A stretch of DNA of 60,062 nt from Patescibacteria group bacterium (lineage in GTDB: Bacteria > Patescibacteriota > UBA1384 > 2-12-FULL-50-11), in assembly GCA_040900165.1 (NCBI GenBank), contig JBBDZM010000015.1, forward strand, positions 5,383 through 65,444, read 5' to 3'. Under the pieces are notes generated by a model. The model was given only the letters and a program-made list of their open reading frames with translations. It had not been told where the DNA came from and did not search any database. This document shows positions 26,510 to 53,742 of the stretch, in pieces (positions within the stretch are counted from its first letter, which is position 1; every line of letters starts with the position of its first letter). A program made the position numbers and the translations under genes.

Positions 26510-26543
26510 CAAACGTACACTTTGTCTGTACGTTAAATGTCTA

Positions 26544-26795
26544 ATGCCTAAATCGATTAAAATAACTTCTTTGCGAGATAACTTAGCCGAGGCTCTTAAG
26601 CAGGCAAAAGACGATAACTTTTTAATTGTTACAAAAAATAATCAGCCCATTAGCGCTTTGGTTGATATTGATTATTTTGAAGATTTACTAACAATCTCTA
26701 ACCCTCGGTTTCTATCTTCGTTAGAAGAATCGAAGCGCCAGGTGAAAAATGGCGAAATCTACACCTTGGAAGAGGTAATGAAAGAGCTTAACTAA
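26544..26795 (+). CDS. Phd/YefM-type antitoxin
   Basis: 83 aa with SLRDNLAEALKQAK...FLIVTKNNQPISALVDIDYFEDLL, directly upstream of a RelE/ParE toxin. ATG at 26544 is preferred over the track start. Confidence 0.75.
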   Translation: MPKSIKITSLRDNLAEALKQAKDDNFLIVTKNNQPISALVDIDYFEDLLTISNPRFLSSLEESKRQVKNGEIYTLEEVMKELN

Positions 26796-26809
26796 GGCGC
26801 CGGTTTCTA

Positions 26810-27067
26810 ATGGCGCACTACCAGGTAATATTAGCTAAGAACGCTCGTCGGGACTTAGTAAAACTTGATCGTATTACCAGAGGAAGGGCAACGAAAGTGC
26901 TGTTGTTGTTAGCAGAGGATCCGCTGCGTGGTGTTGTTAAGCTCCGGGGGAAAGACGAAACGCTCCTCCGTGCTCGCGCCGGTTCCTACAGGATTGTTTT
27001 TAGGGTTGTTTCGAATACGGTCGAGATTCTTCGGATTGCTCATCGTAAAGACATTTACAAGAGATGA
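26810..27067 (+). CDS. RelE/ParE-family toxin
   Basis: 85 aa with the ...LRARAGSYRIVFRVVSNTVEILRIAHRKDIY C-terminal signature. Confidence 0.8.
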   Translation: MAHYQVILAKNARRDLVKLDRITRGRATKVLLLLAEDPLRGVVKLRGKDETLLRARAGSYRIVFRVVSNTVEILRIAHRKDIYKR

Positions 27068-27417: not shown

Positions 27418-27446
27418 AGAAAAAGGGGCGCACTTGCGCGCGCCCC
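27418..27446 (-). terminator. intrinsic terminator for the lipoprotein gene
   Basis: GGGGCGC ... GCGCCCC GC-rich stem. On the minus strand it is followed by TTTTTCT. Confidence 0.5.
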
Positions 27447-27462
27447 TGGTACAGTGGGGATT

Positions 27463-28418: not shown

Positions 28419-30044
28419 ATGAACTGGAGGGGAAGATTGAAATCACTTCTGCCGTTTTTAGCGATAGTCGGGTTGCTGTGCATATCGGTCAGCCCCATGC
28501 TTCGACCATTAACAGCTCACGCTTTAGGCGACGCAAAATTTTTATTAACAAGGGGGACTTTAGACCTTAGAAGGACCACGGATACAGAGGTGGTGTCATC
28601 CGCTAGATTCCAAGTATCTGAAGATGGCGCGCCAGACGAAGAGATCGGCTTTGTCACGATAAATTTATCGCTAGCTAAAGTCTCTACAAATGGGGTTTTT
28701 GAGCGCTGGAAGGTTAACAAAATAACTTTTACCAATGGAAACTTTAAACCGTACACAAGGGGCGGGCAGACGCTACCAAACAAAAGTACGGCTAACGGAT
28801 CGGTTTTGACGCTCTACAACGATGATCAACAGCTAGTAAAAAGATTCGATTATTCTAGCTCCGTACCAAACTACGGGTATGTGATTATCAACCAAAAGGC
28901 AATAACAAGTATCAACGCTGATTACCCGGGTATTTACGTTAAAGACGTAGGTTCTGGCAATGAGTCCATTATTCCCTACGATCGAATTACTCAAAACGAG
29001 TTAAGCCCCATTTCCGCTATGGCTCAAACCTATAAATTTGCCGGGAGCATTGCCAGTGTCGGTGAGATTGCTGGTCAAACCTTTGTGCCGTACTCGCCAG
29101 TTTTTAATTACGATTTAAACCCTGAGAATTCTTCCATTGATGCTGTTAGTAAAGAACAGGCTGAGGGTTGGTATGCGGGACAGAACCTGGGGAAGCTAAT
29201 GATCCAACGGTTTGAAGAACAAAATAAACCGCCTTTTGTAGATATAGCAGCCCATAGTGGTCTACGACGACCAAAAATAAGATTTGTTCTTTCTCATATG
29301 GGCGCAGAAGGTTCGGGTTGGTTTCTTTGGGATAATATGACTTGGGCAGTTTTTACTGCTCACCGGGTTGATAGTAACGGCCAAGAATCTTCATCAGTAA
29401 GTAGCAACCTTTATCTTCTGGTTAACGATAACGGTGACGCTAGTATCGCCTACGACGAAGACCGCCTAGGCATTGAAAAAGGTAAATTTGAACCTATCGT
29501 CGATGTTAATATCCCCGATGATAATATTAACCAGTTTTATGGCTACGCCTACACCCACGTGCCCCAAAATACCCAACAAGAGAACTGCGGCGAGGAGCTG
29601 ACTTACACGATTGGACCAAGCGGTGCTGACTATCGGCACTATACCAATATCCCTGGGCGTCCCGACCCAGCTAGTGAGCTCAACGGCAACTGTCTTGCGG
29701 ATAGTCCCGTTGGTTGGCCAGTTTACTGGGGCGTCACTGTTAATAGTGTGCCTTCCAACGCGTTAGGCGATGGTGGTTGTAGCCTTAACTGGATAATAAA
29801 TGGCGGAATCGCCGGACAATTAGCAGGGGCGGGTAAAGATTCCCCACCGTCAATAATTACTGATTTAGATATTGACGAGAGCCAACTAACTAACCCCATG
29901 GCTCGCATTGCTGTGTGTATGTATCAGTGGCTGGTTGATCCATTAGTTAAATGGGGGGCGGATCTAATAACTAACGTTGGTGGAGTAGCGTATAAACACG
30001 CACCCGAGTATAAATTTGAAAGCATCATATACTACGATGCGTAA
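28419..30044 (+). CDS. secreted hypothetical protein (first gene of the T4SS-like operon)
   Basis: ATG 28419 gives signal peptide MNWRGRLKSLLPFLAIVGLLCISVSPMLRPLTAHA. The track ORF starts at GTG 28332. No family recognised. Confidence 0.55.
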   Translation: MNWRGRLKSLLPFLAIVGLLCISVSPMLRPLTAHALGDAKFLLTRGTLDLRRTTDTEVVSSARFQVSEDGAPDEEIGFVTINLSLAKVSTNGVFERWKVNKITFTNGNFKPYTRGGQTLPNKSTANGSVLTLYNDDQQLVKRFDYSSSVPNYGYVIINQKAITSINADYPGIYVKDVGSGNESIIPYDRITQNELSPISAMAQTYKFAGSIASVGEIAGQTFVPYSPVFNYDLNPENSSIDAVSKEQAEGWYAGQNLGKLMIQRFEEQNKPPFVDIAAHSGLRRPKIRFVLSHMGAEGSGWFLWDNMTWAVFTAHRVDSNGQESSSVSSNLYLLVNDNGDASIAYDEDRLGIEKGKFEPIVDVNIPDDNINQFYGYAYTHVPQNTQQENCGEELTYTIGPSGADYRHYTNIPGRPDPASELNGNCLADSPVGWPVYWGVTVNSVPSNALGDGGCSLNWIINGGIAGQLAGAGKDSPPSIITDLDIDESQLTNPMARIAVCMYQWLVDPLVKWGADLITNVGGVAYKHAPEYKFESIIYYDA

Positions 30045-32469
30045 GTTTCTGTTTATTATTTTGGGGGCAATCACTTTATCTATACTACCGGTGAGTTTGT
30101 CGTTAACTAGCAATACAACCGCCGAACCCCAGCGAGTTTATGCTCAACAAAACTGCGACAGCGACAAAGCTGGGCCGTGTTCGCTAGCTGAAAGGATTTC
30201 CGAGCCGTCTGGCTTTGTTTTCCCTGCCTGGAAGGCCACAAGGGGGATAATAAACGTTCTGTTAATCTTGGCCCTGTTGTTAATTTCATTTTCAAACATC
30301 TCCCATGGCTTGTTTGGCCTTAATCTTGACTCCTATACTATTAAGAAAGCCCTGCCCAACCTTTTCTTGGGAATTATCTTGGCAAACGCCAGTATGTTTA
30401 TCATTCGCTATCTTGCCGACATCGCTACGGTTGTTGTTTACTTTTTTGTCGAATTGGCGAGAGGTCCGGGGGCATTGTTTAGTGAGTTCCTTACGGCCGT
30501 TATCGGTACCGTTGGAATTAAAACCATTGTTGCTACCCAGAGTGCTTCCTTGGCAGGTGTGGCATCGATAATTTATTTAATCTTAGGGTTGGTTATCGCT
30601 GTTGGGATGATCTGGCTAGCGGTCATTCTTTATATTCGATTGGCAGTGGTCTACCTATTAACAATCCTCTCTCCATTAGCATTTGTTGCTTATGGTATCC
30701 CCGGTATGGGTAAGTACTTTACCCAGTGGTGGCAACTATTTATTAAGTGGCTGTTTATATTGCCGGCGATGTGCGCAGTATTCTGGTTGATGTTGGAGAT
30801 TCATAAATCCGGTGAGGTATCGCTAATAAGAACTGTGCTCACCTATATTCTATTCTTTACAGCACTAACCATACCTACCAAGTGGGGAGGAGCGATTGTC
30901 AGTAAGACACAAAATGCATTTAAGAAGGCTGGGTTAGTAGCAGGGGCTACGTCGCAGAACCTAGGGCTGGATGCGTCTTTAGCTGGTTCTAACCTAGCCA
31001 AAAGAGCAGAAAAAGCTAAGGGACTTAGGAAGTTACTCCCCGGAGCGGGTGCTGGAGTCCTAAAGGGGATTGGTGTAATTGCCGCCCCAACTAGAATTAA
31101 AGCTGGCCTAGATAGAAGATGGAAAGGCAAGCAGAAGGCACGAGAGTTTGAGACCAAACAGTCGGGTCTATATAAGCGATTGGCCGGCAAAGACGCGCGC
31201 TACATGGACGCTATGGAGAAACAGTTTGAAGACCTCAACGGCCTCTCTGCTGACGATATTTTTGAAGATCTGAAGTCGGTTGACGATAAAGGGAACGAAA
31301 TAAAAGAGAAAAAAGCCTTGCAGAAATGGTTTGATGGGCTGAGCCCAAAAGACCGCCACAGCCTACTAACAACACCTTTCAACTCTTGGCTCGCTGCCAG
31401 TAAAAACAAACCCCCGGGGAGCTTAGAAGACGCCGGCAAATTCGCTGCCTCAATGAAGCGCTACAATATGGAGTCCAGAAGAAGAACTCAACGTGTCGGT
31501 GGAGCGGAGGCACTCAAGAACGCCGGCTGGGATCATGAAAAAGTTAAACAGCAGCAGGCTGATGAGAAAGGTACCAATCCCTACGGTAATATCGCCGGGC
31601 TGTCAGCTACACATTTAACGGCGATAAATAACGCTATCAAACAAGGGAAAACTCCCGAAGAGGTTGCGGCAACCCTGGGCGGACAGTATGGCCTCGACCC
31701 CAAACAGGTAGCAGCTGCTGCCCGAGATTTAGAGGCCGACATCCATCTTAAGCTTCATATCGACCATTTCGCCGGCAATTTCGGTCCAGCTGCTTCTAAA
31801 GAGATCGCCGAAGCCGGCGCAAAGCTTAGTGAAGAATTCGACGAAGCCTTCGAATCTAAGAGTAACCCCTCATTCGACCGGATTATTAGTAGCTCACAAG
31901 AGTTCTTAAAGAAGGCTGGGTATTTTGGAGCCCCCGATCTTGGCGGCGACAAGCAGCCCGCCGAGCAAGCAGCGGAAATGCAGAGAAAGGTTCGGCTAGT
32001 TAGCAGTGGGGCAAACGCAGTAGCCAACAACCAAACTGCTTCTGCGACCAACAGGCTGGGAAGCTCGATAGAGTCTATGGGGGGACAGCTCGATCAGCTG
32101 GCAGGTTCGGGCGCATCACATGAGCGGCAGGCAGCAGTTATCCAGGACAACGAGCAAGTGAATCAGATTATCACAAACAATGTGACCCAACAGGCCCAGA
32201 TACTAAACAAAAATTTAAGCGCAGAAGAAATCAACAATATTAGCCAAAACGTAAAGAACAGCGTCCTGACAGGCCTAACAGAAAAACACACCTTAAAACG
32301 TATCTTTGGTTCGGAGAAATTCCAACAGACATTAAAGAACACTATTATCAGCTCCGGAATTGGGTCGCAGACCACCACCCCGCCGCCTACCCAAGATAGT
32401 TCAGCAGAACCCCCGCCGCAAGAAACGGCTCCGGTAGATAATTCCGCCCCGCCACCTCCAGAAGCATAG
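30037..32469 (+). CDS. VirB6/TrbL-like polytopic membrane protein with a long hydrophilic tail
   Basis: Signal/TM then about 6-7 TM helices in the first 300 aa or so, a C-terminal region of about 450 aa, and a Pro-rich end (TTTPPPTQ..APPPPEA). ATG 30037 overlaps the upstream stop. Confidence 0.55.
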   Translation: MRKFLFIILGAITLSILPVSLSLTSNTTAEPQRVYAQQNCDSDKAGPCSLAERISEPSGFVFPAWKATRGIINVLLILALLLISFSNISHGLFGLNLDSYTIKKALPNLFLGIILANASMFIIRYLADIATVVVYFFVELARGPGALFSEFLTAVIGTVGIKTIVATQSASLAGVASIIYLILGLVIAVGMIWLAVILYIRLAVVYLLTILSPLAFVAYGIPGMGKYFTQWWQLFIKWLFILPAMCAVFWLMLEIHKSGEVSLIRTVLTYILFFTALTIPTKWGGAIVSKTQNAFKKAGLVAGATSQNLGLDASLAGSNLAKRAEKAKGLRKLLPGAGAGVLKGIGVIAAPTRIKAGLDRRWKGKQKAREFETKQSGLYKRLAGKDARYMDAMEKQFEDLNGLSADDIFEDLKSVDDKGNEIKEKKALQKWFDGLSPKDRHSLLTTPFNSWLAASKNKPPGSLEDAGKFAASMKRYNMESRRRTQRVGGAEALKNAGWDHEKVKQQQADEKGTNPYGNIAGLSATHLTAINNAIKQGKTPEEVAATLGGQYGLDPKQVAAAARDLEADIHLKLHIDHFAGNFGPAASKEIAEAGAKLSEEFDEAFESKSNPSFDRIISSSQEFLKKAGYFGAPDLGGDKQPAEQAAEMQRKVRLVSSGANAVANNQTASATNRLGSSIESMGGQLDQLAGSGASHERQAAVIQDNEQVNQIITNNVTQQAQILNKNLSAEEINNISQNVKNSVLTGLTEKHTLKRIFGSEKFQQTLKNTIISSGIGSQTTTPPPTQDSSAEPPPQETAPVDNSAPPPPEA

Positions 32470-32475
32470 GCTCAT

Positions 32476-33381
32476 ATGGAGCAGTTGGATTACACACCGG
32501 AAGATAGCGAGAATTTAGAGGAAAATTCAGACATTTTTGAGATGTCTGCCTTTCCAGAAGCGTACCAAGATATTGTTGGCCGCCATAACGAGGAGTTCAG
32601 GGCAATACTAGAGCAAACACTCCCGGCCGAGCTTATTGACGGGGCCATTTCGAGAATCACCTTCGAACGTGATGACCCCACTGAAGTAAACCGTGCCTAT
32701 GGCGTCAGCGCCGTTGCCGTTTGTGAAACAGGTGGCGTAATAAAAATATTTGAGGGCTTCTTTGAGAAAACCTACGCGGAGCAGCAGTATATATTGGCGC
32801 ACGAAACTGGGCACGCACTAACACAGATTATTTTCTCGGGGGCAAAGACTTACGAAGAGTTATCCCGACTAAACGCATCCAGTGACAGTGCCGGCGAAAC
32901 ACTGTATGTGCAACACATGGCGGAGATGGTACAACGTGGGAAACTAGATCAAAGAGCTCTTTTTCACGAACAAACGGCCGAGAGAATGGCCGCTTACATA
33001 TTAGGGGGAGGCGACTTTGCAAATATGTTGGAGATTCAAGCAATTTATTTACGTGAGCCTGGCGAACTTTTCAGGGGCATTCCCGAAGACATATTGAAAG
33101 ATAAAGATGCCCTGCGCAACTTTCTAAACAATAATGAAACCGATAATAAGCTATTAGAAATGACTAGAGAGTATCACAGGCTGATTAATGGAGCGGTTCG
33201 CCAGACAGAGCAAACATCTGGAGAAGTGGTGGACTGGCACTTTAGGGCAGTCGATGACTCGACTTTGGGCGAAAGCCCATTCCTAAGCGCCCACTCCAAG
33301 CACCACGAAGAGGCCCCACTGCAGACAAAATCTCTCTGGAGCTTCTTATTAGAGTTCTTGCTCCAGACAAAACAGCCTTAA
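32476..33381 (+). CDS. HExxH motif protein (putative zinc metallopeptidase-like), no signal peptide
   Basis: YILAHETGHALTQ motif, an acidic N-terminus and no TM or signal sequence. Confidence 0.45.
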   Translation: MEQLDYTPEDSENLEENSDIFEMSAFPEAYQDIVGRHNEEFRAILEQTLPAELIDGAISRITFERDDPTEVNRAYGVSAVAVCETGGVIKIFEGFFEKTYAEQQYILAHETGHALTQIIFSGAKTYEELSRLNASSDSAGETLYVQHMAEMVQRGKLDQRALFHEQTAERMAAYILGGGDFANMLEIQAIYLREPGELFRGIPEDILKDKDALRNFLNNNETDNKLLEMTREYHRLINGAVRQTEQTSGEVVDWHFRAVDDSTLGESPFLSAHSKHHEEAPLQTKSLWSFLLEFLLQTKQP

Positions 33382-33454
33382 GATATCGAACAGTTTAGGC
33401 TACACTGTTCATTATGGAGGGTTATGCAGTTGAGGGGTTGCATACGATGGGCTG

Positions 33455-33877
33455 ATGCAGTTTAAAGTGCCTCAGAACATTGATATGGAGGATAAGATTA
33501 TTGGGCCGCTGACGCTGACCCAGTTCTTCTATTTGCTGTTTGGCGGCGTTATTATCTACATCCTTTTTGGCAAGCTGGTTCTAACCGGCTATTCGTTTTT
33601 GTTCTGGATTTTAGCCATACCGCTTGGGACTTTTAGCTTTGCCATGGCTTTTATCAAAATCCAAGACCGGCCGTTCCCGTCGTTTTTCTTTGCGATGATT
33701 AAATACATCACCACCCCCCGGGCTCGAGTTTGGCAGCACTATACCAGACCCAACCAAGTCAAGCCGAAAGCGCCCGTTGCCAAACCAACCAACTACTCCA
33801 AAAAGTCGTTCGACACCGTCCGAGTTAACGAGTTGGCCGAGATAATGGATAAAGACCTACCAAGGGCAAAGGAATAA
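33455..33877 (+). CDS. PrgI/VirB3-like small membrane protein
   Basis: FKVPQNIDMEDKIIGPLTLTQFFYLLFG followed by two TM helices, immediately upstream of and overlapping virB4 (TAATG). Confidence 0.6.
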   Translation: MQFKVPQNIDMEDKIIGPLTLTQFFYLLFGGVIIYILFGKLVLTGYSFLFWILAIPLGTFSFAMAFIKIQDRPFPSFFFAMIKYITTPRARVWQHYTRPNQVKPKAPVAKPTNYSKKSFDTVRVNELAEIMDKDLPRAKE

Positions 33878-36555
33878 TGGCTAAAAAAGATCAGATCAAA
33901 CCAGTTGCAACTCAAAAGTACCTGCAGATCGAGCGAATCCGCGAGGGAATAATTATTCTTAAAGACGGTCGCCTGCGCAAAATTGTTAAATGTATGCCGC
34001 TTAATTTTGATTTAAAGAGTGAAAAAGAAAAAGAAGTCGCCGTTTACCAATACCAAAATTTTCTTAACTCCTTAAAGTTCCCGCTCCAAATTGTCGTTCA
34101 GTCCCGCCGGGTTGATCTATCGGCTTATATCGAGAAAGTCGAGCACGCCAGCGCTAACGAGATTAACGAGCTTTTGCAAAAGCAGTCCACAGACTACCTC
34201 GATTTCATCAAGACCTTGAGTGAGCAGGTCAATATTATGGAGAAATCTTTTTACTTAATCGTTGGCCATACTGTTAAAGGCGCCGTTGAACAACAAACGT
34301 TTATCGACAAAGTTCTTGGTAAAAAACGGATTGGCTTGACCGATGTTAGCGACACGGACTTTGCTGCCTACAAAGAAGTCCTTCAGGAGCGAACCCGCAC
34401 AGTTGCCGGCCGGTTGAATTCGTTAGGCATTCAAACCCACGATCTGGACACCAAGGAAATTATCGAGCTCTTCTATAACTCCTACAACCCCGAGGAGTCG
34501 TTTACCCAACATATGAGCAACCCCGACCAAGTAACGGCGCCGGTGATTGAGAAGGGCCAAGACCTGCTTAAACAAGCCGGAGTGGTTGAGCAAAAAGCCG
34601 ACGGCACTCCGGCTCCGCCAGCTGGCGGACCAGCCAGCTCGCAAGAGGGCGAGGTGAAAATTGACCAAGCGGCGGCCGCCGACATTGGTAACGAGGCCAA
34701 AACGATGCGCAAAACGACCGTCAATCAGATTTTTAACCGGCTGGGCATTAAAGCCACCGACGAGCAGAACACCGAGGCGGTCTTGCGCCAAGGGATTGCC
34801 AGCATTCTGGACGTAATTGCCCCGGGCGGTATGAACATTACCCCCAACTACGTTCAGCTTGGTAGCTACTACCTGCGCACTCTGTTTGTCTACACCTACC
34901 CCCGATATTTACAGGCCAACTGGCTCTCGCCGATTATCAACTACGACACCACGCTGGATTTGGGAATGTTTATCTACCCAGTTGAGACTAATATTTTAGT
35001 CGGGCAACTGCGCCGCAAAACCACTCAACTGCAATCGAGCCTGCAGATCGAATCCGAAAAGGGCCTGGTCCGTAATCCGGAGCTGGAGACGGCCGTTGGC
35101 GACATCGAAGAGCTGCGCGACACCCTTCAAAAAGGCGAAACCCGGCTGTTCCAAATGGGGCTGTATTTTACAATTTACGCCAGCACGATCGACGAGCTCA
35201 ACAAGCTCTCCAAACAGTTTGAGTCGATTCTCGGCGGCCAATTAATCTACACCAAACAGGCACTCCTGCAGATGGAGCAGGGCTTTAACTCAACGATGCC
35301 ACTGTTGGACGACCAGATGGATATCGTCCGCAACCTCGATACCGCCTCACTCTCCACCACCTTCCCGTTCACCTCGGCCGAGTTAAGCCACCACGACGGC
35401 GTGCTCTACGGCATTAACCTGCACAATAGCTCGTTAGTGCTGTTTGATCGCTTCAAAATGGAGAACGCCAACCAAGTGGTTTTTGCCAAATCCGGCGCCG
35501 GTAAATCCTACGCCGTTAAATTGGAGGCGATCCGTTCGCTGATGCTCGGCACCGAAGTAATTATTATCGACCCAGAAAACGAATACAAAGCTCTCGCTCA
35601 AGCGGTCGGCGGCAGCTACGTCGACTTATCGCTTAACTCCAGCCAAAAAATTAATCCGTTTGATCTGCCGAAATACCGCGAAGGCTCCGGCGAAACCGGC
35701 GAACAACTACTGCGTAGCACCGTTACCTCGGTCCACGGCCTAGTTAGTTTGATGGCCGGCGGTCTAAACCCCGAGGAAGACAACTTGCTCGACAAAGGGC
35801 TCTACGAAACTTACGCGCTGCGCGATATCACCAGCGATCCGGCCAGCCACGCTAACACCCCACCAACGATGAGCGATTTGGTAACGGTTCTGCAAAATAT
35901 GAGCGCGACCGAATCGTTGGTTAATCGCTTGGCCAAATACACCGACGGCAGTTTTGCTGGATTATTTAACTCCCAAACCAATATCGATATGAACAACAAG
36001 GTGACCGTTTTCTCGATCCGCGATATGGAAGATGAGCTCCGCCCAATCGCTATGTATATGTCGCTTAACTATATTTGGAGCCGGGTCAAAAGCGACCTGC
36101 GCAAACGGATGATGATTATCGATGAGGGTTGGGTAATGATGCGCTTTGAGGATTCGGCCAAGTTTGTTAACGCAATCGCTAAGCGGGCTCGCAAATATTA
36201 TCTGGGCCTAACGGTGATCAGCCAGGACGTTGAGGACTTTTTGAACTCGCCGTACGGCCGGTCGGTCGTTAACAACTCCTCCACCCAGCTGCTGCTAGGG
36301 CAGTCAACCGCCGCCATCGATAAAATTGCCGAAGTCTTCAAGCTAACTGACGGCGAAAAGTTCTTCCTGACCGAGGCCGAGGTCGGCCAAGGCCTGTTTT
36401 TTGCCGGCAACAACCGAGCGGCGATTCAGATAGTTTCGTCGTACACCGAGGATCAAATTATCACTACTGATCCAAAGCAGCTGCTGGAGATGTACGGAAT
36501 CAGCGGCGGCGCAGGCACCGAGCCCGCAGCCCCTACCATAAACCCAAATGGCTGA
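33877..36555 (+). CDS. virB4: VirB4/TraE-type T4SS ATPase
   Basis: 892 aa with Walker A FAKSGAGKSY, Walker B-like MMIIDEGW, and the size and position typical of VirB4/PrgJ/TcpF-type ATPases. Confidence 0.85.
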   Translation: MAKKDQIKPVATQKYLQIERIREGIIILKDGRLRKIVKCMPLNFDLKSEKEKEVAVYQYQNFLNSLKFPLQIVVQSRRVDLSAYIEKVEHASANEINELLQKQSTDYLDFIKTLSEQVNIMEKSFYLIVGHTVKGAVEQQTFIDKVLGKKRIGLTDVSDTDFAAYKEVLQERTRTVAGRLNSLGIQTHDLDTKEIIELFYNSYNPEESFTQHMSNPDQVTAPVIEKGQDLLKQAGVVEQKADGTPAPPAGGPASSQEGEVKIDQAAAADIGNEAKTMRKTTVNQIFNRLGIKATDEQNTEAVLRQGIASILDVIAPGGMNITPNYVQLGSYYLRTLFVYTYPRYLQANWLSPIINYDTTLDLGMFIYPVETNILVGQLRRKTTQLQSSLQIESEKGLVRNPELETAVGDIEELRDTLQKGETRLFQMGLYFTIYASTIDELNKLSKQFESILGGQLIYTKQALLQMEQGFNSTMPLLDDQMDIVRNLDTASLSTTFPFTSAELSHHDGVLYGINLHNSSLVLFDRFKMENANQVVFAKSGAGKSYAVKLEAIRSLMLGTEVIIIDPENEYKALAQAVGGSYVDLSLNSSQKINPFDLPKYREGSGETGEQLLRSTVTSVHGLVSLMAGGLNPEEDNLLDKGLYETYALRDITSDPASHANTPPTMSDLVTVLQNMSATESLVNRLAKYTDGSFAGLFNSQTNIDMNNKVTVFSIRDMEDELRPIAMYMSLNYIWSRVKSDLRKRMMIIDEGWVMMRFEDSAKFVNAIAKRARKYYLGLTVISQDVEDFLNSPYGRSVVNNSSTQLLLGQSTAAIDKIAEVFKLTDGEKFFLTEAEVGQGLFFAGNNRAAIQIVSSYTEDQIITTDPKQLLEMYGISGGAGTEPAAPTINPNG

Positions 36556-37996
36556 GCCAATCCAACCCTTAGTTCCGGAGGATATCGGCCCAGAAGAGCT
36601 GGAGGAAGCTCTCGAGCCGCAAGAGCTAGAGGTAGAAGATCAAGATCAGGGCCCCGATCGAATCGATCAGCTCAAAGATCAGCTCAAAGAAAAATATAGA
36701 GAAAACCAAGAACGGAAACGTCAAGAGCAGGAACAAGCCAAGCAAACAGAGGCCGAAAAACCACCCCAACAAACCGAACAACCGGCTGAAAACCCCGAAC
36801 TAACCGAGCGCAAACAAGCCAAAACCCAAAACGAAGTTGATCGGGTTAAATCTGGTGAACAGAAGCTCCAAAAGGCCACTGGCAAAGTGGAAAAAACCGT
36901 CGGCAAAGAAGCGGTTGGGGCGGCCGAGCGAGAAACAGCCGTCGCCGCCAAACAAGGGGCAAAAGTTGCCGGCAAAGCCGCGGGACAGGCGGCCAAAGCC
37001 GCTGCCCAGGCAACCGCTCAAGCGGTTAGGGCGGCCGTTGCTGCTACCTCGGAAATCTGGGGCCCAGTGCTGATTGTTATTTTAATTATTGTGGTAATTG
37101 TGGCGGTTATTTTCATACTCTTCTCGTTTAGTAAAGGTACCGGCAAGGGCCCGGCCCAGTACCCGGCAACTGCCTACGACCAAACGCAGATTGTTTCGTT
37201 GTTAGCCGTCTCCAGCGACAGTAATGCCACCCGTGAAAAAGTTCTAACAGAAATTAATAAAATGGAGGAGAGGTTAAACGGCCTTAAGAGCGACGCCCGC
37301 AAGAAATACAACGCCACCAAAGCCCAGGCCGCCGGAGCGGAAATTGATATTATTATTGAGCAGATTAACCTGTTAAAACCGGTCGCTGACGACCCAGTTG
37401 GCCGAAAGACGATAATCGATAAAATTAATATCTCGCTGGGAAGCTTGGCTACAAAGTACCCGGAGCTACTGTTTTCGGCCGGCAACTGCGGCGACCTCCA
37501 GAGCTACATTGACGGCGGCCAGTTTGTAATTGCTCGCAGCCCGGAGCGGTCCACTATCGCCAAAGGGTATCTCGTTCGGGGTGGTCACTCCTCAATCGCT
37601 CGCTCCGAACAGGGACAGGTCCAGATCAACCCGAAACTTTGTAACGTTATTCTATTTGTTTTGAAAAACGGCTACGACATTGGCGGAGTCACCCTAACTT
37701 TTGGGCACCGCAAATATTCATCTGGCACCACTTTCTCCCAGCACTACGTTGCAGAGGCTATCGACATTGCATCGCTCAACGGCGCATCGTTTGGTAGTGC
37801 CAAATGGAAATCACAGTCGAGTACTTTAATGCAGTTGCTTCAGCAGAACTATCAACAGCTGGGGATTTGGGAGCTGTGGGGGCCGGCTAATTTCTCCGTT
37901 AACGACTGTAAAACGACTGGACAAACCATCGGCGGGCACGACAACCATATTCACCTGGGGGTAACCAACCCAACCAAGGAGCAATCATGTCGGTAG
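36548..37996 (+). CDS. bitopic membrane protein with a C-terminal LAS (M15/hedgehog-type) zinc-peptidase-like domain
   Basis: Acidic then Lys/Ala/Gln-rich N-terminus and one TM helix (IWGPVLIVILIIVVIVAVIFILF). Has SQHYVAEAIDI (37736-) and HDNHIHLG (37937-), which resemble the SxHxxGxAxD and terminal His motifs. Confidence 0.55.
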   Translation: MAEPIQPLVPEDIGPEELEEALEPQELEVEDQDQGPDRIDQLKDQLKEKYRENQERKRQEQEQAKQTEAEKPPQQTEQPAENPELTERKQAKTQNEVDRVKSGEQKLQKATGKVEKTVGKEAVGAAERETAVAAKQGAKVAGKAAGQAAKAAAQATAQAVRAAVAATSEIWGPVLIVILIIVVIVAVIFILFSFSKGTGKGPAQYPATAYDQTQIVSLLAVSSDSNATREKVLTEINKMEERLNGLKSDARKKYNATKAQAAGAEIDIIIEQINLLKPVADDPVGRKTIIDKINISLGSLATKYPELLFSAGNCGDLQSYIDGGQFVIARSPERSTIAKGYLVRGGHSSIARSEQGQVQINPKLCNVILFVLKNGYDIGGVTLTFGHRKYSSGTTFSQHYVAEAIDIASLNGASFGSAKWKSQSSTLMQLLQQNYQQLGIWELWGPANFSVNDCKTTGQTIGGHDNHIHLGVTNPTKEQSCR

Positions 37997-40900
37997 AGCA
38001 AGCCCGAACAATTATTATCAACGGCTTTATTGCTGCCACCATCTTACTGTCGATGCCGATTAGTTTGGTCGGCCAGGCTTGGGCCCAGGAGCAGAATCCG
38101 CCAATCAACCAAACGCTCGAGCAGGATTACGCCGACGAAGACCCGAGCGACGGCGGCGTGTCCGCCGAATACGTGGCGGAGTACGACAATAAGCAGATTA
38201 CTACCCAGCTCAACGGGCTGGAGAAGCTAGCTGACTACCACGACAGTATTAGAATGTCGCCGCAAGACGCCCAAGCCCTCCGCGATGGCCGGGTTGATGT
38301 TCGGGTCACTGACTACCTGCTCTATTTAGTTACCCCGCTCGAGTTGGGCGGTGCTGGCCTGGATAATATTAAGATCCAGCGGATTCTCAAAAACTACAAC
38401 ACCGACGGAATTGGCCGGTTCGACCGCGAAACGCTCTCGTCGATCGAAGAGGGCGAGAACTTTGTGTCGGCCCATAACTCCGGCCAGGCCATTGATATCT
38501 CGGAAGTCGGGGCCGTCACCTGTAAATTAATCAAAAAGAGCTATTTAGGCGGCTCCTCCACCAGCTTCCAACGAGCCAAACCAATCAAAATCGCCTGGCA
38601 AAGCCGAGAAGGAATCAACCGCACCCCCACACCAAGGGGGCCAAGCCTTTACGAGGTGGCTAGCAATATGAGCGCCCAGAGCATCCTGCAGATGCTTAAC
38701 GACTCCGGGGAAATGGACGACTTTGCCGACTACGTTAAGGGGCTGTCTGTTGAAGAAATATTCCAGTACGTCGGCGCCAATATCCTAATGAAGCACTACG
38801 GGACGGGCGATATTATGGTTGATCCTCGCTCGGGCGACATCGCCGATGTACTTGGGGCCTTGATTCTTCAGAGGCTTATCCCCAATCTACCCCCTGGCCT
38901 GCCAACTGCCCAAGCTAACGACGATATTCGGGTGGCAATCGCTCGAGCCCATTTAGAAGACCTATTAAATCTCCCGCCCGGCTCGTTAAGAGGCAGTGGC
39001 TGGAACGAGATCCTCGCCAGCACGGGTAAGCGGACCATGGAAAATGCCCTGGGATTGCCAGCGCTAACTTTTGATAGTCGTTCGCTAGCGGAGGTACTAA
39101 AGAACGGCTCAGTTCAAGCATCGCTCAAACAGTTCAAAAAAGACGACAGCTCTTTTGGGGTATTACCAGGAACAATTGCGATCATTGCCAAAGGAGATGA
39201 CCAAGGGTTCATCTGGGCTGGCGCCAATTTATTCGCTGATGCTCTCCGGTTAAGCGACGCCCAGAAACAACAGCTGATTCAAGCCGTCAAGAACTCACAA
39301 ACCCCAAACATCACCCTTAGCTCAACCGGCTCCGACGTGGCGGCGCCAATCAATGTTTTGGAGGCTCTGCTCGACAAAACGGGAGGGACTTCCGTCCTTA
39401 AGGATTTTGGACAGAAATATTTAGGGCAAATCCTGGGGAAAGTCGTTCCAAATGAGCTACTCGGGCTAACAAAAGCGGTTGTTGGTCAGTTAGCTAATTC
39501 GACCAGTAATGTTGTCTACGGCGACCTGCGCCGATCCATTGGCAGCCGGAAGATTGCTTCCGACAGCTCGATACCGCCAGCCCAGGCCGACGCTCTAAAA
39601 AATGGCACTGGTAACAATCGATATTACTCGCAGATTGCTAATACCCTAAATAACGAATTTGCTATCGATTCAAATAGCCAGTTAACCGCCAGCGATATTA
39701 GTAGTCTTTTCACCAGCGGCGGTGATGCAGTGTTGGCAAAAGTTGGCGGCAACCAGGCCGATAAAGCGATAGGCTGGAACCCCGGCACCGGCTATGCGGT
39801 AATTAACGGCGATAAAACTCTTGCCCAAGGTCTGCAGGAAGTATTCACCAGCACCATCACCCAGATCGCTGGACTGCGCCAAGGGACGACCGTTAGCCTG
39901 AATGGCGACTTGTCTCGTAACTACGGCGATGCTCTAGTTGAGCAATCATTGGGCATAAATATTGCCGGCAACGGATCGGCTACCGACATCAGCCCCCAAA
40001 CTCTTTATCCGGCGTTTGGCATTAGCGATTCCCGGTCACTAGCACAGTTGCGTAGTGACTCTGGTTTTTGGAGTAAAAATAACGTCAAAGACGCCCTGGA
40101 GTTTACCGATGTCCGTCTCGGTGTGGCCCTCGGGACCAGCGAGGATTACCTGCGCGGTAAAATTAATAACGACAAGCTGTCGAAAACGGTAGCCCAGGAG
40201 AACCTGGGGAAGATTACCCAGGAAAAAGTCCTTAGTTTCCTCGATCTCGACGACGCCTTCAAACTAAGCAAGGACGAACTTGGCTATATTATTACCACTA
40301 TTGGCAGCTGGGATAGCGCTGGCTTGAGCGCCCAGCAAAAAGTTCTCAATCTCGGCCTAAAACTAATTGGCCGGACTTGGGATCAGCGAACCGCCTTTGG
40401 TAAAGATGCTTTTTTAAATATTGTCCAAAGCAAAGATCAGGCCGCATTGGTTGACCAACTAATTGATCAAGGGATTCGTCGGTTAGCCGGTGCCCTTGGC
40501 GCCAATATCGACAGCTTTGAGCCGGCCGATCTAAAGATCCTGTCCCGTTTAATTACGGATGCCTATAACGGTGGCATCAATGGGAGCACCGGCGCCTATG
40601 GTCTCACGGCCGAGGCGCTGATTACCAAATGGCTAACTGACGCAACAAAAATCCCGGTAACAAGCGACGTTAAAACCTTTATCACCGGGGATTTCCGAGC
40701 CGGGTTGGAGTACTGGTCAGCTGCCCAAATGGTCGAGTTTGCCACTAAATTCTTGCCCGACGGCTCAACACTAACTTACGACGAGATGCGCAATGCTATC
40801 GATCTTACCGACAGTTCCCTAATCAATCTCCGGGCCCAAACAATTGCCGCCAAAGAAGGGGGTACTGCCGATAAGTACACCGACCAAGCCCGCCGCGAGT

Positions 40901-42297
40901 TAATGCAAGAAGCGCGCGATAACTCCAAGTACAAAATTTCCGACGCCTTCCTGCGCCAAGCCGAGATTCCGGTTCCCGCCAATTTCTCGCAAACGATGTT
41001 TGCCGGCTCAACCCAAGAACGCTCGGAGATGATGACTAATGTCGTCTTTTCGTATATCGATCGGGAGCTCCAGAAGATTAATCCAAATTATGTCCCGGGG
41101 ACGCTTGCGGGAATCTTTGCCGGCGATATCGATCCGCTCCAGACCGACCAAATTATTAGCAATATCGTCAGTAATAGCTCGGTGTCGCTTGGATCGTTCT
41201 CAACCGGATTTATCGCTAATTTTTATCAATTTATTAAAGCCGGCGATAAAACCAGCTTCTTCACCGACAGCAAACACAGCTCGATGTGGCAGTATATGGA
41301 GAACTGGCTCGGCAATAATTTGGGAATTAGCGGTCTGTCGGCTGGCTACGCCAAAACCATCTACTATGCCTCCCAACACGGCTGGAGCACTAGCGCCTCG
41401 CTAACCCAGAACGGCAAGGTTATCGTCCCGTCGATTAACCAACTGGGGCAGGCCTTGGTCGCCAGCCGCCTCACCCAGATGGCCGACAAAGTTATGAATC
41501 TGCCAGTTGGCTCTAGCTACCAAATTTACCAAGCGGCCACCGGCGTTGCTAGCGCTTCGCGCGCACTAGCGGCGGCCCGAGCGGCCGGTGATGCCGGGAG
41601 AATTTCGCAAGCGCAGAACGGTTTGGCTAGTGCCCAGAACGAGCTAACTGTCATTGCCATTACTATCGCCCTGAACTCCTGCCAGGCCTGCCAGCAGTTT
41701 TTCTCCTCGATTGATCGACTAATCGCCGCCCCGCCGGGCTTCACTAACGCCCTGGTCGCCGGAGCGATTGCTGCAGCATTTGGACTGGGTCCGGCCGGAT
41801 TAATCGCCGCGGCGGCAATATTTCTCTTTGGCGTCTACAAAGTCGAGTACAAATGCCCTCTGCCACCGCCGGACCGCTTTGCCCTAACCCAGTTTGACGA
41901 CCCGCTTGATCAGCTGGAGCCGTCGAAAAATACTTACTACAGCGATCCTAATAAGCCCGTCAAAGACCACCCGGCCCCCGGTGAAAACCCGTTTGATTGG
42001 GACGACGGCGTACCGTTCGTTGACGGCAATAACCCGGAGCTGTGGATGGCCTGGAGCCGTTACTTTACCGGCAAACTCTTAGATTCAACGATGGCGTTTG
42101 GCGCCAGCAATACCGGTGCTAAGAAACCAGTCCAAGTAATTACCTTCCGCCAGGCCAACGCCGAGTATTTTGCCCCGAAATCGCTTGCGACATTTGGTCC
42201 GGAAGAAATCGGCAACAATCGGGTTGGACTCGGGTTCACCCAGGCCTCAACTAAAACCACTGACTGGGTCCACACCGCTTTTGGAGGGTTCTTTTAA
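37987..42297 (+). CDS. giant (1436 aa) secreted/membrane-anchored protein of unknown function
   Basis: N-terminal signal-like segment (..SLVGQAWAQEQ), SAHNSGQAIDIS motif at about 38467-38502, a long Gly/Ala/Ser/Asn-rich body and hydrophobic helices near residues 1230-1270. Confidence 0.6.
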   Translation: MSVEQARTIIINGFIAATILLSMPISLVGQAWAQEQNPPINQTLEQDYADEDPSDGGVSAEYVAEYDNKQITTQLNGLEKLADYHDSIRMSPQDAQALRDGRVDVRVTDYLLYLVTPLELGGAGLDNIKIQRILKNYNTDGIGRFDRETLSSIEEGENFVSAHNSGQAIDISEVGAVTCKLIKKSYLGGSSTSFQRAKPIKIAWQSREGINRTPTPRGPSLYEVASNMSAQSILQMLNDSGEMDDFADYVKGLSVEEIFQYVGANILMKHYGTGDIMVDPRSGDIADVLGALILQRLIPNLPPGLPTAQANDDIRVAIARAHLEDLLNLPPGSLRGSGWNEILASTGKRTMENALGLPALTFDSRSLAEVLKNGSVQASLKQFKKDDSSFGVLPGTIAIIAKGDDQGFIWAGANLFADALRLSDAQKQQLIQAVKNSQTPNITLSSTGSDVAAPINVLEALLDKTGGTSVLKDFGQKYLGQILGKVVPNELLGLTKAVVGQLANSTSNVVYGDLRRSIGSRKIASDSSIPPAQADALKNGTGNNRYYSQIANTLNNEFAIDSNSQLTASDISSLFTSGGDAVLAKVGGNQADKAIGWNPGTGYAVINGDKTLAQGLQEVFTSTITQIAGLRQGTTVSLNGDLSRNYGDALVEQSLGINIAGNGSATDISPQTLYPAFGISDSRSLAQLRSDSGFWSKNNVKDALEFTDVRLGVALGTSEDYLRGKINNDKLSKTVAQENLGKITQEKVLSFLDLDDAFKLSKDELGYIITTIGSWDSAGLSAQQKVLNLGLKLIGRTWDQRTAFGKDAFLNIVQSKDQAALVDQLIDQGIRRLAGALGANIDSFEPADLKILSRLITDAYNGGINGSTGAYGLTAEALITKWLTDATKIPVTSDVKTFITGDFRAGLEYWSAAQMVEFATKFLPDGSTLTYDEMRNAIDLTDSSLINLRAQTIAAKEGGTADKYTDQARRELMQEARDNSKYKISDAFLRQAEIPVPANFSQTMFAGSTQERSEMMTNVVFSYIDRELQKINPNYVPGTLAGIFAGDIDPLQTDQIISNIVSNSSVSLGSFSTGFIANFYQFIKAGDKTSFFTDSKHSSMWQYMENWLGNNLGISGLSAGYAKTIYYASQHGWSTSASLTQNGKVIVPSINQLGQALVASRLTQMADKVMNLPVGSSYQIYQAATGVASASRALAAARAAGDAGRISQAQNGLASAQNELTVIAITIALNSCQACQQFFSSIDRLIAAPPGFTNALVAGAIAAAFGLGPAGLIAAAAIFLFGVYKVEYKCPLPPPDRFALTQFDDPLDQLEPSKNTYYSDPNKPVKDHPAPGENPFDWDDGVPFVDGNNPELWMAWSRYFTGKLLDSTMAFGASNTGAKKPVQVITFRQANAEYFAPKSLATFGPEEIGNNRVGLGFTQASTKTTDWVHTAFGGFF

Positions 42298-42342
42298 ATG
42301 AATTTTAGAAGACTAAATGAATTTTTTAGAAGACTAAATGAA
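42295..42342 (+). repeat. tandem duplication of the start region (TAAATGAA x3)
   Basis: TAAATGAATTTTAGAAGAC / TAAATGAATTTTTTAGAAGAC / TAAATGAA. The ATGs at 42298 and 42317 open 17- and 6-codon decoy ORFs. The ATG at 42338 opens the real gene. Confidence 0.8.
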
Positions 42343-43522
42343 AAAAGGTAGCGCAACAACTTATATTTTAATTGGCGTTCTACTATTAGCGATCGGCCTG
42401 ATCGTCGCCCCGATACTGCTGATTGGAACATATTTAGGAGGGCACCTGGACAAGGCAACCGGGGCGTTCGGGCCGGGTGGGCTGGGCTGTTTTATCGCTG
42501 ATTCAGCCTTTACCGATACGTCGATCGTTGCCAAACAAGATTCGATTATTGCCCAAATTACGGCCAAGTGGCCGGCGGCGAAAACCAACGAAAAATATGT
42601 TAAGGAAGTATTCACCCGGGGGGAAAAAGAAGGAATTAACCCGTTAATACCGCTGGCGATCTGGGCCGGAGAGCAAACATTTAGCCACCCAGAAAAAGCT
42701 TTTGGTTATGGCTATAAAGACAGCGGGATAATTGCTGGCGTCACTAATTGGGACGCCCAACTGAATGGCGTTTACAACAGTATCGATGACACGATCAACA
42801 ACACCGGCAACTACACCAACCCCACCGACGGCAACCGCTTTACCCGCCTTTTCTATAACTACACCACCGCAATGAAGAATGCCTATTCGCAAGCGGGAAA
42901 CTCTTGGAGTGAAAATTTCCCCGTCGTTAGTGCCCGGTTGGCGATTTTCCGCCTCGTCAATGAGAGCAGTATCACTTGCCAACAGAATACCTTACTGGCA
43001 AGTGCCACCACCGGCAACGACGGAGTACCGCTCTATAAACAAGCCCACTTCCCCCAGAAATACGGTCTGGGGACTATTGCTAGCTCTGGCTGTTGTACGG
43101 TTTCGGCAACAATGATTTTGAATTACTACGGCATAAACGTCGACCCAGTAACTATCTCCAATCTCTCTTACGAAAACGGATTCTACGCGACTAGGGTGAA
43201 CCCAGATACTGGCAAGGTTGAGGGCGCGGGGACTAATCATCTGGGCTTTTACCCATTCTTGGCCAACAAATACGGCCTTCGCCTGGAGAATCTTGGGGTT
43301 GACTGGGATAAGGCCCTTAACAGCTTAAAGAACGGTCAGCCAATCATTGCCCGGGGCAAGGGTGCAGAGCCCTATACCACTAGCGGCCACTGTCTGGTCT
43401 TAACTGGTTACGATAGTGCCACCGGAATGGTTCGTGTTAACAACCCCGCCAACGGAGATGGACCTTATCAGCTTAACTATCTAAAACAAGAGACAACCGT
43501 ACTATACTTATTTAGCAAATGA
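42338..43522 (+). CDS. membrane-anchored cell-wall hydrolase: lysozyme-like N-domain plus peptidase C39-like C-domain
   Basis: N-terminal TM helix, GINPLIPLAIWAGEQTF (glycosidase-like), and C39-like Cys/His motifs SSGCCTVSATMILNYYG and SGHCLVLTGYD. Confidence 0.6.
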   Translation: MKKGSATTYILIGVLLLAIGLIVAPILLIGTYLGGHLDKATGAFGPGGLGCFIADSAFTDTSIVAKQDSIIAQITAKWPAAKTNEKYVKEVFTRGEKEGINPLIPLAIWAGEQTFSHPEKAFGYGYKDSGIIAGVTNWDAQLNGVYNSIDDTINNTGNYTNPTDGNRFTRLFYNYTTAMKNAYSQAGNSWSENFPVVSARLAIFRLVNESSITCQQNTLLASATTGNDGVPLYKQAHFPQKYGLGTIASSGCCTVSATMILNYYGINVDPVTISNLSYENGFYATRVNPDTGKVEGAGTNHLGFYPFLANKYGLRLENLGVDWDKALNSLKNGQPIIARGKGAEPYTTSGHCLVLTGYDSATGMVRVNNPANGDGPYQLNYLKQETTVLYLFSK

Positions 43523-44097
43523 TTAAACGCAACCTTATCCCAATATTAGCAATCGCATTTGTAGGCTTGGTGACCCTGTTTGTTTTCTCGTCTCAAAAAG
43601 GAACCGTCGTTGCCAGCATCAGCGATAAGAGCGAGATTAAAGACAATGTGGCGATAAGTTTCAGCGCCGATAAATACAAAAAATCCTACTTAGTCCCTGG
43701 CAGTATTAAGCTTCGCCCGGGTAGTTATTCCTTTAGTGCCTATGCGCCTGGTTCGAGTATTCTAGAGGGTAAGGTTACTGTTGCTAACGGACAAGATGCG
43801 GCTATAACTATCCTGCTGACTAAAAACCCTGACGCCGATCTGCCCGGGAGCAACCCAGACAGTCTCGACGATATCCCCAACTACGGTCTCTTTCCTCACG
43901 TAACCGGCGATTATCGGTTGGAGGCGGTGCTAAATAGTGACAGTACTAAAATAGATCATCTGCGGTTAACGGTTTACCATCACTTTGCGACTAGTTTTAA
44001 CGAGCAGGATCGTCAGGCGGCGTTAGCCGACGCTAAAAAATGGCTGGCCGATAACAACATTTCCGACACTTTCAAAATTACCGTCGTTGACGAGTAA
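43519..44097 (+). CDS. bitopic membrane protein, PEGA-like beta domain
   Basis: ATGA overlap with the upstream gene, an N-terminal TM helix, and LRPGSYSFSAYAPGSSILEGKVTVANGQDAAITILL. Confidence 0.45.
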   Translation: MIKRNLIPILAIAFVGLVTLFVFSSQKGTVVASISDKSEIKDNVAISFSADKYKKSYLVPGSIKLRPGSYSFSAYAPGSSILEGKVTVANGQDAAITILLTKNPDADLPGSNPDSLDDIPNYGLFPHVTGDYRLEAVLNSDSTKIDHLRLTVYHHFATSFNEQDRQAALADAKKWLADNNISDTFKITVVDE

Positions 44098-44361
44098 TTA
44101 GTAGCTCACTTTCACCCGGACTGTATAGCCGTGGCCCTTGCCAAGAATATTGGTTAGCTGGGCGTAGAGCTGGGCGCGGCGCAGTCGGAAAAACGTCGCC
44201 TGGGCGGGACTTTTGCACGACAAAACGACTAATTTATTTCTAACCACCACCTTGACTGGTTCCTTGTGAAAAGTTTTTAGATACTGCTGCAGCTTGGTTG
44301 ATAGATATATCCGCGACAAATAGTCGCTGTTTGAGCCGAGAATACTCCCCAAGTGCTCCAT
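44098..44361 (-). CDS. DUF721-like protein downstream of recF
   Basis: 87 aa in the conserved position after recF, with ...VVRNKLVVLSCKSPAQATFFRLRRAQLYAQL resembling DUF721. Confidence 0.55.
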   Translation of the reverse strand: MEHLGSILGSNSDYLSRIYLSTKLQQYLKTFHKEPVKVVVRNKLVVLSCKSPAQATFFRLRRAQLYAQLTNILGKGHGYTVRVKVSY

Positions 44362-53730: not shown

Positions 53731-53742
53731 CTCGCACCGCCC

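Follow-up and report, generated by a model that had tools for sequence, protein, structure and literature searches.

What is a type IV secretion system (T4SS) for when its genes include no coupling protein and no relaxase and end close to the replication origin? The question is raised by a 60,062-nucleotide stretch of DNA from a Patescibacteria group bacterium (contig JBBDZM010000015.1; hereafter the window), in which nine co-directional open reading frames (ORFs) on the + strand (28419-44097), labelled A-I, form a compact T4SS operon (Table 1). An earlier note, made from the letters of the window, had proposed a chromosomal apparatus for contact or secretion in an epibiotic bacterium from the candidate phyla radiation (CPR) rather than a conjugative element. 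Our analysis supports this reading, and the same conclusion has been published for the homologous locus of Southlakia epibionticum ML1 (PMC10633639). We consider it probable, with good confidence, that the operon encodes a pilus-bearing, VirB4-driven envelope apparatus that acts on a host cell and does not serve conjugation. It belongs to the Patescibacteria T4SS lineage, which goes back to the conjugation machinery of Gram-positive bacteria (MPF-FATA) and now serves an epibiotic lifestyle. The system, its lack of a relaxase, and its position near dnaA have already been published (PMC12102498, PMC12857230), so the locus is a rediscovery and brings no new principle; our additions are incremental and concern its origin-ward orientation, the module swapping seen in F and H, the different proteins that fill slot C, and the fusion of A and B. 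The Patescibacteria T4SS is nevertheless one of the few molecular handles on host exploitation by CPR bacteria and the first T4SS shown to be essential for its own bearer. The window offers a compact and well-preserved case, whose lineage stands far from the cultivated Saccharibacteria. In it, VirB4, PrgI, the VirB6-like core, and G, the giant protein, are constant parts, and the hydrolase modules, the slot-C protein, and the position of the pilin array are exchanged between close relatives.

How complete is the T4SS core? The earlier note counted ten genes; there are nine ORFs, matching the nine proteins that it named. The five junctions it quoted are correct on re-checking of the coordinates, the remaining intergenic gaps are 6, 73, and 40 nt, and the nine genes are translationally coupled. 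Gene E encodes a VirB4 ATPase, as had been claimed: it scores 359.9 bits (2.6e-107) against NF045971 (VirB4-like, CD1110 family; cutoff 325), carries GAGKS and DEGW motifs, and also matches the TraG P-loop profile PF19044 (2.1e-26) and AAA_10. Residues 21-137 of E give a sub-threshold match to TrsD (NF041427, E = 4.9e-4); the TrsD-like and VirB4 parts match as separate, noncontiguous segments in the related loci L010 and L008 (separate ORFs in L010) and are two genes, SEML1_0009/0008, in ML1 (PMC10633639). Immediately upstream of virB4, D is PrgI/VirB3-like, again as proposed (PF12666, 4.5e-11, 43.6 bits, cutoff 27). No significant Pfam or NCBIfam match was obtained for A, B, C, F, G, or I.

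For B, the earlier label “VirB6/TrbL-like” fits the topology and position of the protein, while no profile matches B itself. Hydropathy indicates a signal peptide, about six transmembrane (TM) helices at aa 64-279, and a hydrophilic, low-complexity tail of ~500 aa. The gene lies two genes upstream of the PrgI gene, and a B-like match lies upstream of the PrgI gene in 33 related loci. One of 23 B homologues matches the TrbL/VirB6 profile PF04610 (E = 6.8e-4), and a search of the B family against the PDB returned TrwI at a nonsignificant E = 2.1. Topology, position, and the single TrbL-matching homologue make a VirB6-like identity plausible, and the proposed ML1 counterparts of B were called VirB6-like from structure (PMC10633639). 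The product of A has a single N-terminal hydrophobic segment by hydropathy and evolves fast (a word-indexed search found two homologues only), with a conserved Cys-containing motif at its C terminus (alignment A4). Because A and B form one in-frame fused ORF in L006 (4654-8613, 1319 aa) and in L014 (3560-7279, 1239 aa), A is probably the extracytoplasmic module of the VirB6-like channel protein.

A further component, absent from the earlier note, is separated from the operon by 8.6 kb and stands across oriC: an array of four VirB2-like pilin genes, which belongs to the T4SS of the window. Its neighbours are Hsp20, a ComF-like gene, tRNA-Ser, a solute-binding protein gene, and a PilB-like ATPase (54225-55811).

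How does this set of genes compare with the one member of the family for which there are experiments? Wang et al. 2023 (Cell, PMC10633639) described the T4SS of ML1 (SEML1_0006-0019) as unusual and closest to Gram-positive conjugative systems, with pilins present and with no recognisable coupling protein or relaxase. Nearly all genes of the locus are essential in transposon sequencing, and it is needed for epibiotic growth (PMC10633639). SEML1_0005-0019 directly follow dnaA-dnaN-recF on the opposite strand, in the order PEGA protein, protein with two lysozyme domains and a Cys-peptidase, 1113-aa Hedgehog/DD-peptidase protein, VirB4, 293-aa protein, PrgI, and VirB6-like proteins, and then six pilins (SEML1_0014-0019, an essential array), Hsp20, a ComF-like gene, and tRNA-Ser (PMC10633639). 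The window shares with ML1, which is known here from published tables only, the chromosomal position beside dnaA-dnaN-recF, convergent on recF; the matching order, on the VirB4-distal side, of PEGA-like, lysozyme/Cys-peptidase, giant DD-peptidase-type, VirB4, PrgI, and large VirB6-like proteins (a candidate in the window); the VirB2-like pilins with Hsp20, ComF-like, and tRNA-Ser neighbours; and a locus without recognisable coupling protein or relaxase. It differs in that the TrsD-like domain is fused to VirB4 (two genes in ML1); in having the bitopic hydrolase F and the cytoplasmic HExxH protein C, which are not evident in ML1; in having one candidate VirB6-like gene plus A, whereas ML1 has two VirB6-like genes and an NTF2-like protein; and in having four pilins across oriC in place of six adjoining the operon. 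VirB4 of the window is ~52% identical to that of L010, the closest Saccharibacteria-labelled locus compared.

The wider family gives the same picture. Quiñonero-Coronel et al. 2025 (Microb Genom, PMC12102498) found a monophyletic Patescibacteria VirB4 clade allied to MPF-FATA, with TrsD, PrgI, VirB6, and VirB2 homologues near virB4, and a 2025 FEMS review counts the Patescibacteria systems as a branch new to the T4SS superfamily. The window agrees with that clade in its MPF-FATA-related VirB4, its nearby PrgI, TrsD-like, candidate VirB6-like, and VirB2-like genes, the lack of a relaxase and of a type IV coupling protein (T4CP) near virB4, and its closeness to dnaA, dnaN, rpmH, and rnpA. With the MPF-FATA conjugative systems themselves (pCF10 PrgH-I-J-K-L, pIP501, and the Clostridioides CTn with CD1110) it shares the order VirB6-like (a candidate in the window), VirB3-like, VirB4, wall hydrolase(s), a VirB4 that passes the CD1110 cutoff, an H orthologue (in L004) with SLT and CHAP domains, and the lack of outer-membrane components. 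It differs from them in having, within the window, no relaxase, T4CP, oriT, or integrase, in lacking mobility, and in having no detectable VirB8-like (PrgL/TcpC) protein, and in possessing VirB2-like pilins, which Gram-positive systems lack, a 1436-aa giant, and a PEGA-like protein.

Could the operon be, or have been, a mobile element? The earlier note saw no VirD4/TcpA, relaxase, or integrase, and none was found in the nine operon ORFs and 30 flanking ORFs scanned (40 ORFs of at least 150 aa in the 60-kb window). An FtsK (2767-4809) was considered as a TcpA-type coupling protein and rejected, as its 4TM, alpha, and gamma domains identify it as the chromosomal FtsK. The note's statements that no oriT-like repeat is visible and that both flanks are core genes also hold: there is no notable inverted repeat beside the operon, and Pfam scans of the 30 flanking ORFs returned housekeeping genes only, among them recX, recA, ftsK, RNase J, PNPase, polA, a Mur ligase, FemAB, tsaD, valS, yidC, the PilB-like ATPase, and two toxin-antitoxin pairs. 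A search for att-like direct repeats flanking the operon found none, and the GC content of the operon is that of its flanks.

The relatives point the same way. A VirB4 scan of species-representative genomes recovered, at 72-90% identity, metagenome-assembled genomes of CPR bacteria that carry the labels Saccharibacteria, Saccharimonadales, Berkelbacteria, or Patescibacteria, and across at least 90 CPR and metagenome loci identity ranges from 41-90%. The order valS-o117-(lipoprotein)-A-B-C-D-E-F-G-H-I-x87-recF-dnaN(-dnaA) is common to L001-L006 and the window. Of the findings that the earlier note named as refuting it, neither a VirB4 outside its family nor variable presence was seen: VirB4 passes its family cutoff, and each of the six close relatives has the locus at this site. 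An integrative and conjugative element, or the remnant of one, is rejected on the conserved gene order, the uniform GC content, and the absence of att repeats. We take the locus to be a fixed, vertically inherited part of the chromosome and not a mobile element, since its place beside oriC is constant, its GC content uniform, and the 60-kb window without T4CP, relaxase, integrase, or att sites.

The operon might still be a working conjugation or mobilisation apparatus that depends on a coupling protein, a relaxase, and an oriT located in other parts of the genome, outside the window. Its components are homologous to those of Gram-positive conjugative T4SSs, and T4CP homologues are common in Patescibacteria genomes but rarely near virB4, with VirD4-like genes standing away from virB4 in many of them (PMC12102498). 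Relaxases, however, were detected in 103 genomes only, as against 2,474 virB4 genes, and the distant T4CP of ML1 is nonessential while its T4SS is essential (PMC12102498). Essentiality for growth is itself unexpected of a conjugation system, and the position beside oriC is fixed in every relative examined, with no integrase and no att repeats. We therefore regard conjugation as very unlikely.

What, then, do the remaining genes suggest about the target of the apparatus? Four of them (F-I) encode predicted envelope or cell-wall proteins. In F, an acidic, low-complexity cytoplasmic N terminus is followed by one TM helix (~aa 172-195) and a helical juxtamembrane domain (hydropathy, alignments A2/A8), and the C terminus bears a LAS-type motif, S-x-H-x6-D ... 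H-x2-H-x-H. Word-indexed searches returned four matches for F, the first search being swamped by the low-complexity N terminus, and one for the F ectodomain; a 99%-identical copy is annotated in an NCBI “Patescibacteria group bacterium” genome. By hydropathy, G carries a signal or anchor at its N terminus and has a long extracytoplasmic region, a hydrophobic stretch (aa 1255-1286), and a tail of ~150 aa. Its conserved N-terminal domain carries an invariant S-x-H-x2-G-x-A-x-D, for which no third His ligand was found in alignment A6. G is 37-61% identical over nearly its whole length in L001, L002, L003, L005, and L006 and 31-36% identical, in two segments, in L004. The ML1 protein proposed as its counterpart, on size and position, is SEML1_0007, an essential protein with a Hedgehog/DD-peptidase domain recognised from structure (PMC10633639). 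For these proteins the term “LAS-like”, given to the bitopic protein in the earlier note, holds for the motifs, which are invariant in small alignments; beyond the motif level, no profile or PDB support was obtained. Alignment of the LAS-like modules of F and G with hhalign paired only an 18-residue S-x-H...D motif, and PDB sequence and profile searches with F, G, H, the F LAS module, and the G N-terminal domain gave nothing significant.

H was earlier described as lysozyme-like plus C39-like. The C39 part is clear (Peptidase_C39_2, PF13529, 4.6e-21, 76.3 bits, cutoff 24), and the lysozyme-like N-terminal part has no profile match; the proposed counterpart in ML1 by position, SEML1_0006, combines two lysozyme-like domains with a cysteine proteinase (PMC10633639). 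H is the VirB1 equivalent of the system, because its L004 orthologue has the SLT and CHAP domains of the classic Gram-positive VirB1 type. I gave weak fn3_3 and CarboxypepD_reg matches only, and its proposed counterpart by position, SEML1_0005, is an essential PEGA-domain protein (PMC10633639).

Are these hydrolases stable among close relatives? In F orthologues the N-terminal part is kept, as are the TM helix and the helical domain next to it, and H orthologues keep the anchor and in several relatives also the N-terminal domain; in both, the C-terminal module varies. The window pairs a LAS motif in F with C39_2 in H. The other pairs (F, then H) are weak CHAP/NlpC-P60 with a Glucosaminidase below cutoff in L001, NlpC/P60 (28.3 bits) with M23 in L002, C39_2 (36.4 bits) with Amidase_2 in L003, a LAS motif with SLT+CHAP in L004, and weak NlpC/P60 with C39_2 in L006; F of P0003 has a LAS-type module too. 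Such turnover at 72-90% VirB4 identity to the window suggests that the enzymes may face a changing substrate, for which the host wall would be the obvious candidate, as the turnover is hard to explain if F and H cut only their own, slowly changing wall. The available parts of the 2025 survey (PMC12102498) contain no discussion of hydrolase-module swapping or of a variable slot C.

The abundance of hydrolases also bears on whether the apparatus might assemble a pilus for adhesion and carry no cargo at all, with VirB4 polymerising VirB2-like pilins by which the epibiont clings to its host. In Gram-negative systems VirB4 drives the assembly of the pilus, the four-gene pilin array contains diverged copies, and a coupling protein is missing. 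Yet pilus assembly does not call for four or more hydrolase modules together with a giant envelope protein and a cytoplasmic protein that varies. Type IV pili are said to serve attachment in these bacteria already, and the window contains the PilB-like ATPase. We give a purely adhesive pilus barely any chance.

The variable cytoplasmic protein, C, occupies a slot that is filled differently in different relatives. Hydropathy indicates no TM segment and no signal peptide. The family is rare (12 representatives among 1.84 billion), and residues H109, E110, H113, Y144, E165, A168, and E169 are invariant in it (pattern HExxH...Y...E..AE). The AlphaFold2 (AF2) model of C (pLDDT 75.5) found, as its best Foldseek matches, anthrax lethal factor (prob 0.90, E = 0.03) and abylysin, with nothing at E <= 0.001, and Pfam gave weak matches to M91, M48, and M78. 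The invariant HExxH...E and the weak structural matches are why we call it zincin-like. Homologues of C stand in the equivalent slot of L013 (2620-3528) and L014 (7322-8374), and L001-L006 have there an unrelated protein of ~250 aa with an EQxERR motif (L001 8712-9500; hhalign prob 0.1% vs. C). Both alternatives occur in genomes with similar VirB4. C is a candidate accessory protein or substrate.

How might these parts work together? B, with A as its outer module, would form the membrane channel, and D would tether the VirB4 hexamer, which would supply the power for extracting pilins, growing the pilus, and passing substrates. F, G, and H would be membrane-anchored peptidoglycan hydrolases that open a path through the cell wall, I would be a wall-spanning or adhesive Ig-like protein, and C would be a cytoplasmic zincin-like accessory protein or substrate. 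As to what passes, we favour export of proteins—hydrolases or effectors—and not of DNA. Bordetella Ptl and Brucella VirB offer a parallel, being VirB4-driven, without a VirD4 homologue in the locus, and not for conjugation; they differ as diderm MPF-T systems with VirB7, VirB9, VirB10, and VirB11 and known substrates, and their homology with the window is limited to core proteins.

The main rival turns the direction of transport around: T4SS and pilus would import host macromolecules (DNA, RNA, nucleotides, or other nutrients), like Helicobacter ComB or the archaeal Ced system for DNA import. The group to which the organism belongs lacks nucleotide and amino-acid synthesis (PMC10633639), the window has no coupling protein or relaxase, a ComF-like gene stands near the pilin array, and VirB4 weakly matches CedB (2.1e-7) and CedD (1.1e-4), import ATPases of the Ced system, at scores well short of their cutoffs. 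These Ced matches, however, reflect generic P-loop similarity, the conjugative CD1110 type being the best match by far, and the numerous wall hydrolases suit action outward no less than import. In ML1, deletion of comEC ends competence and leaves viability unaffected, while the T4SS is still essential (PMC12857230); because that deletion is viable, the essential role of the ML1 T4SS is not ComEC-dependent DNA uptake. On balance we think an uptake machine unlikely.

Several points weigh against our preferred reading of an outward-acting host-contact apparatus. Direction and cargo are putative for every member of the family, and the function proposed here is carried over from experiments on ML1. 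To our knowledge, few T4SSs work without a coupling protein (Ptl and Brucella VirB), and a VirD4-like gene far from virB4 is carried by many Patescibacteria (PMC12102498). B has no significant VirB6 match in Pfam, NCBIfam, or PDB searches. The LAS assignment of F and G is made at motif level, and the AF2 model of F is poor (pLDDT 44.6) because the alignments are shallow. A VirB8-like component was not found, with no profile match among the operon proteins: the F ectodomain is predicted by this poor model to be helical and not NTF2-like, and SEML1_0005, the proposed counterpart of I, has an Ig-like and an OmpATb-N-like domain, not NTF2 (PMC10633639).

How is the operon placed with respect to replication? 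In the window, oriC lies at ~46.5-48.2 kb, 2.4-4 kb to the right of the operon. It is placed there by its DnaA boxes and by the divergence of rpmH-rnpA-yidD-yidC from dnaA, rpmH starting at 48226 on the + strand. The only two perfect DnaA boxes of the window (46587 and 46675) both lie in the 221-bp dnaA-dnaN spacer, and boxes with one mismatch lie beside them (46687) and at the start of dnaA (48080 and 48110); the window's GC skew is too slight to show where an origin lies. Accompanying the DnaA boxes, a 20-nt repeat containing GTTGTTGAAA occurs in the dnaA-dnaN spacer, at 46565 and 46586 (46565-46605), and upstream of dnaA, at 48143 (48143-48162); it may be an oriC element. The operon ends base-to-base against its neighbour, as had been noted: the stop of I (44095-44097) abuts the stop of a minus-strand 87-aa gene, beyond which lie recF and then dnaN and dnaA. 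This small gene, labelled “DUF721” in the earlier note, matches DciA (formerly DUF721) only weakly (E = 0.14). The distance from the operon to its neighbour is 0-55 bp in the window and close relatives.

The head-on orientation that the earlier note found unusual is also real: the operon, on the + strand to the left of oriC, is transcribed toward oriC and against the leftward fork. Head-on genes make up ~23% of the coding sequence left of oriC in the window when the operon is left out, and about half when it is counted. Is this orientation general? We fetched 80 further virB4 loci from metagenomes, giving 93 loci with VirB4, 18 of which have dnaA, dnaN, recF, or yidC in their flanks (within 10 kb). 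In all 18 the origin markers lie downstream of virB4, and the operon points at the origin. Ten loci (plus ML1, from published coordinates) converge on recF-dnaN-dnaA, and eight converge on yidC with dnaA beyond, on the opposite side of the origin. Orientation toward the origin is thus a conserved feature, seen in loci that form five clusters at 60% VirB4 identity and 11 at 70%, although the number of independent events may be small because origin-symmetric inversions preserve orientation. The frequent proximity to dnaA, dnaN, rpmH, and rnpA has been read as a gene-dosage effect by the 2025 survey, the text of which does not discuss gene orientation relative to the origin (PMC12102498).

That the arrangement beside oriC has been selected, and is not incidental, seems to us rather doubtful. 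If it were, the orientation could tie the expression of the host-contact machine to the start of replication, either by conflicts between fork and polymerase or by antisense transcripts that run on into the dnaA operon. Mutation and recombination in the T4SS genes could also be raised, which would fit the module swaps of F and H, the slot-C alternatives, and the diverged pilins, if these are taken as host-range adaptation.

Table 1. Genes, junctions, origin block, and pilin array of the T4SS locus, in window coordinates
Feature	Coordinates	Strand	Description
Gene A	28419-30044	+	541 aa, secreted or N-terminally anchored; alternative start GTG at 28332
Gene B	30037-32469	+	810-aa polytopic membrane protein, candidate VirB6-like channel subunit
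Gene C	32476-33381	+	301-aa cytoplasmic HExxH protein, zincin-like fold; variable slot between VirB6-like and PrgI genes
Gene D	33455-33877	+	PrgI/VirB3-like, two TM helices (hydropathy)
Gene E	33877-36555	+	892-aa VirB4 ATPase with TrsD-like N-terminal domain fused on; soluble by hydropathy
Gene F	36548-37996	+	482-aa bitopic protein, putative peptidoglycan peptidase
Gene G	37987-42297	+	1436-aa giant envelope protein
Gene H	42338-43522	+	394-aa N-terminally anchored wall hydrolase; N-terminal conserved domain and C-terminal C39-like cysteine peptidase
Gene I	43519-44097	+	192-aa N-terminally anchored protein, PEGA/Ig-like
Junction A/B	30037		8-nt overlap
Junction D/E	33875-33879		TAATG
Junction E/F	36548		8-nt overlap
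Junction F/G	37987		10-nt overlap
Junction H/I	43519		ATGA
Origin block	44098-48225	-	87-aa weak DciA-like gene (44098-44361), recF, dnaN, dnaA, DnaA-box spacers, 108-bp spacer 48118-48225 upstream of dnaA
VirB2-like T4SS pilin array, four genes	52659-54162	+	PF18895 T4SS_pilin, gathering score 26.6
Pilin gene 1	52659-53030	+	40.6 bits
Pilin gene 2	53027-53326	+	30.6 bits
Pilin gene 3	53323-53730	+	28.5 bits
Pilin gene 4	53800-54162	+	34.7 bits

Scans for regulatory signals gave little at the operon itself. Predicted promoters were no more frequent than in shuffled sequence, and a terminator scan found 35 sites where 23.5 ± 5.2 were expected, with nothing notable at the operon ends. The sole convincing terminator near the operon is a strong GC-rich hairpin with T tracts at 27424-27447 (10 pairs, 8 of them G-C), which sits between the convergent o117 and 283-aa lipoprotein genes; the 3' end of the operon has none, at an intergenic distance of zero. 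The G-H spacer (42303-42342) contains an exact 19-nt tandem duplication, TTTTAGAAGACTAAATGAA, with a period of 21; the second copy includes the start codon of H, and the first yields a six-codon mini-ORF.

Toxin-antitoxin genes recur around these loci. A Phd/ParE pair (26472-27067, +) lies between valS and o117, where the relatives have none, and a second ParE-like pair lies at 57473-57995 (+). L014 has MazE/PIN pairs at 978-1654 and 8457-9303, one of them directly after gene C. Near the right end of the window (58471-59802, -), a 443-aa predicted surface protein combines an RFKIQDL tandem repeat at its N terminus and repeats of Ig-like appearance with a C-terminal TM anchor; it has no Pfam match and may be an adhesin.

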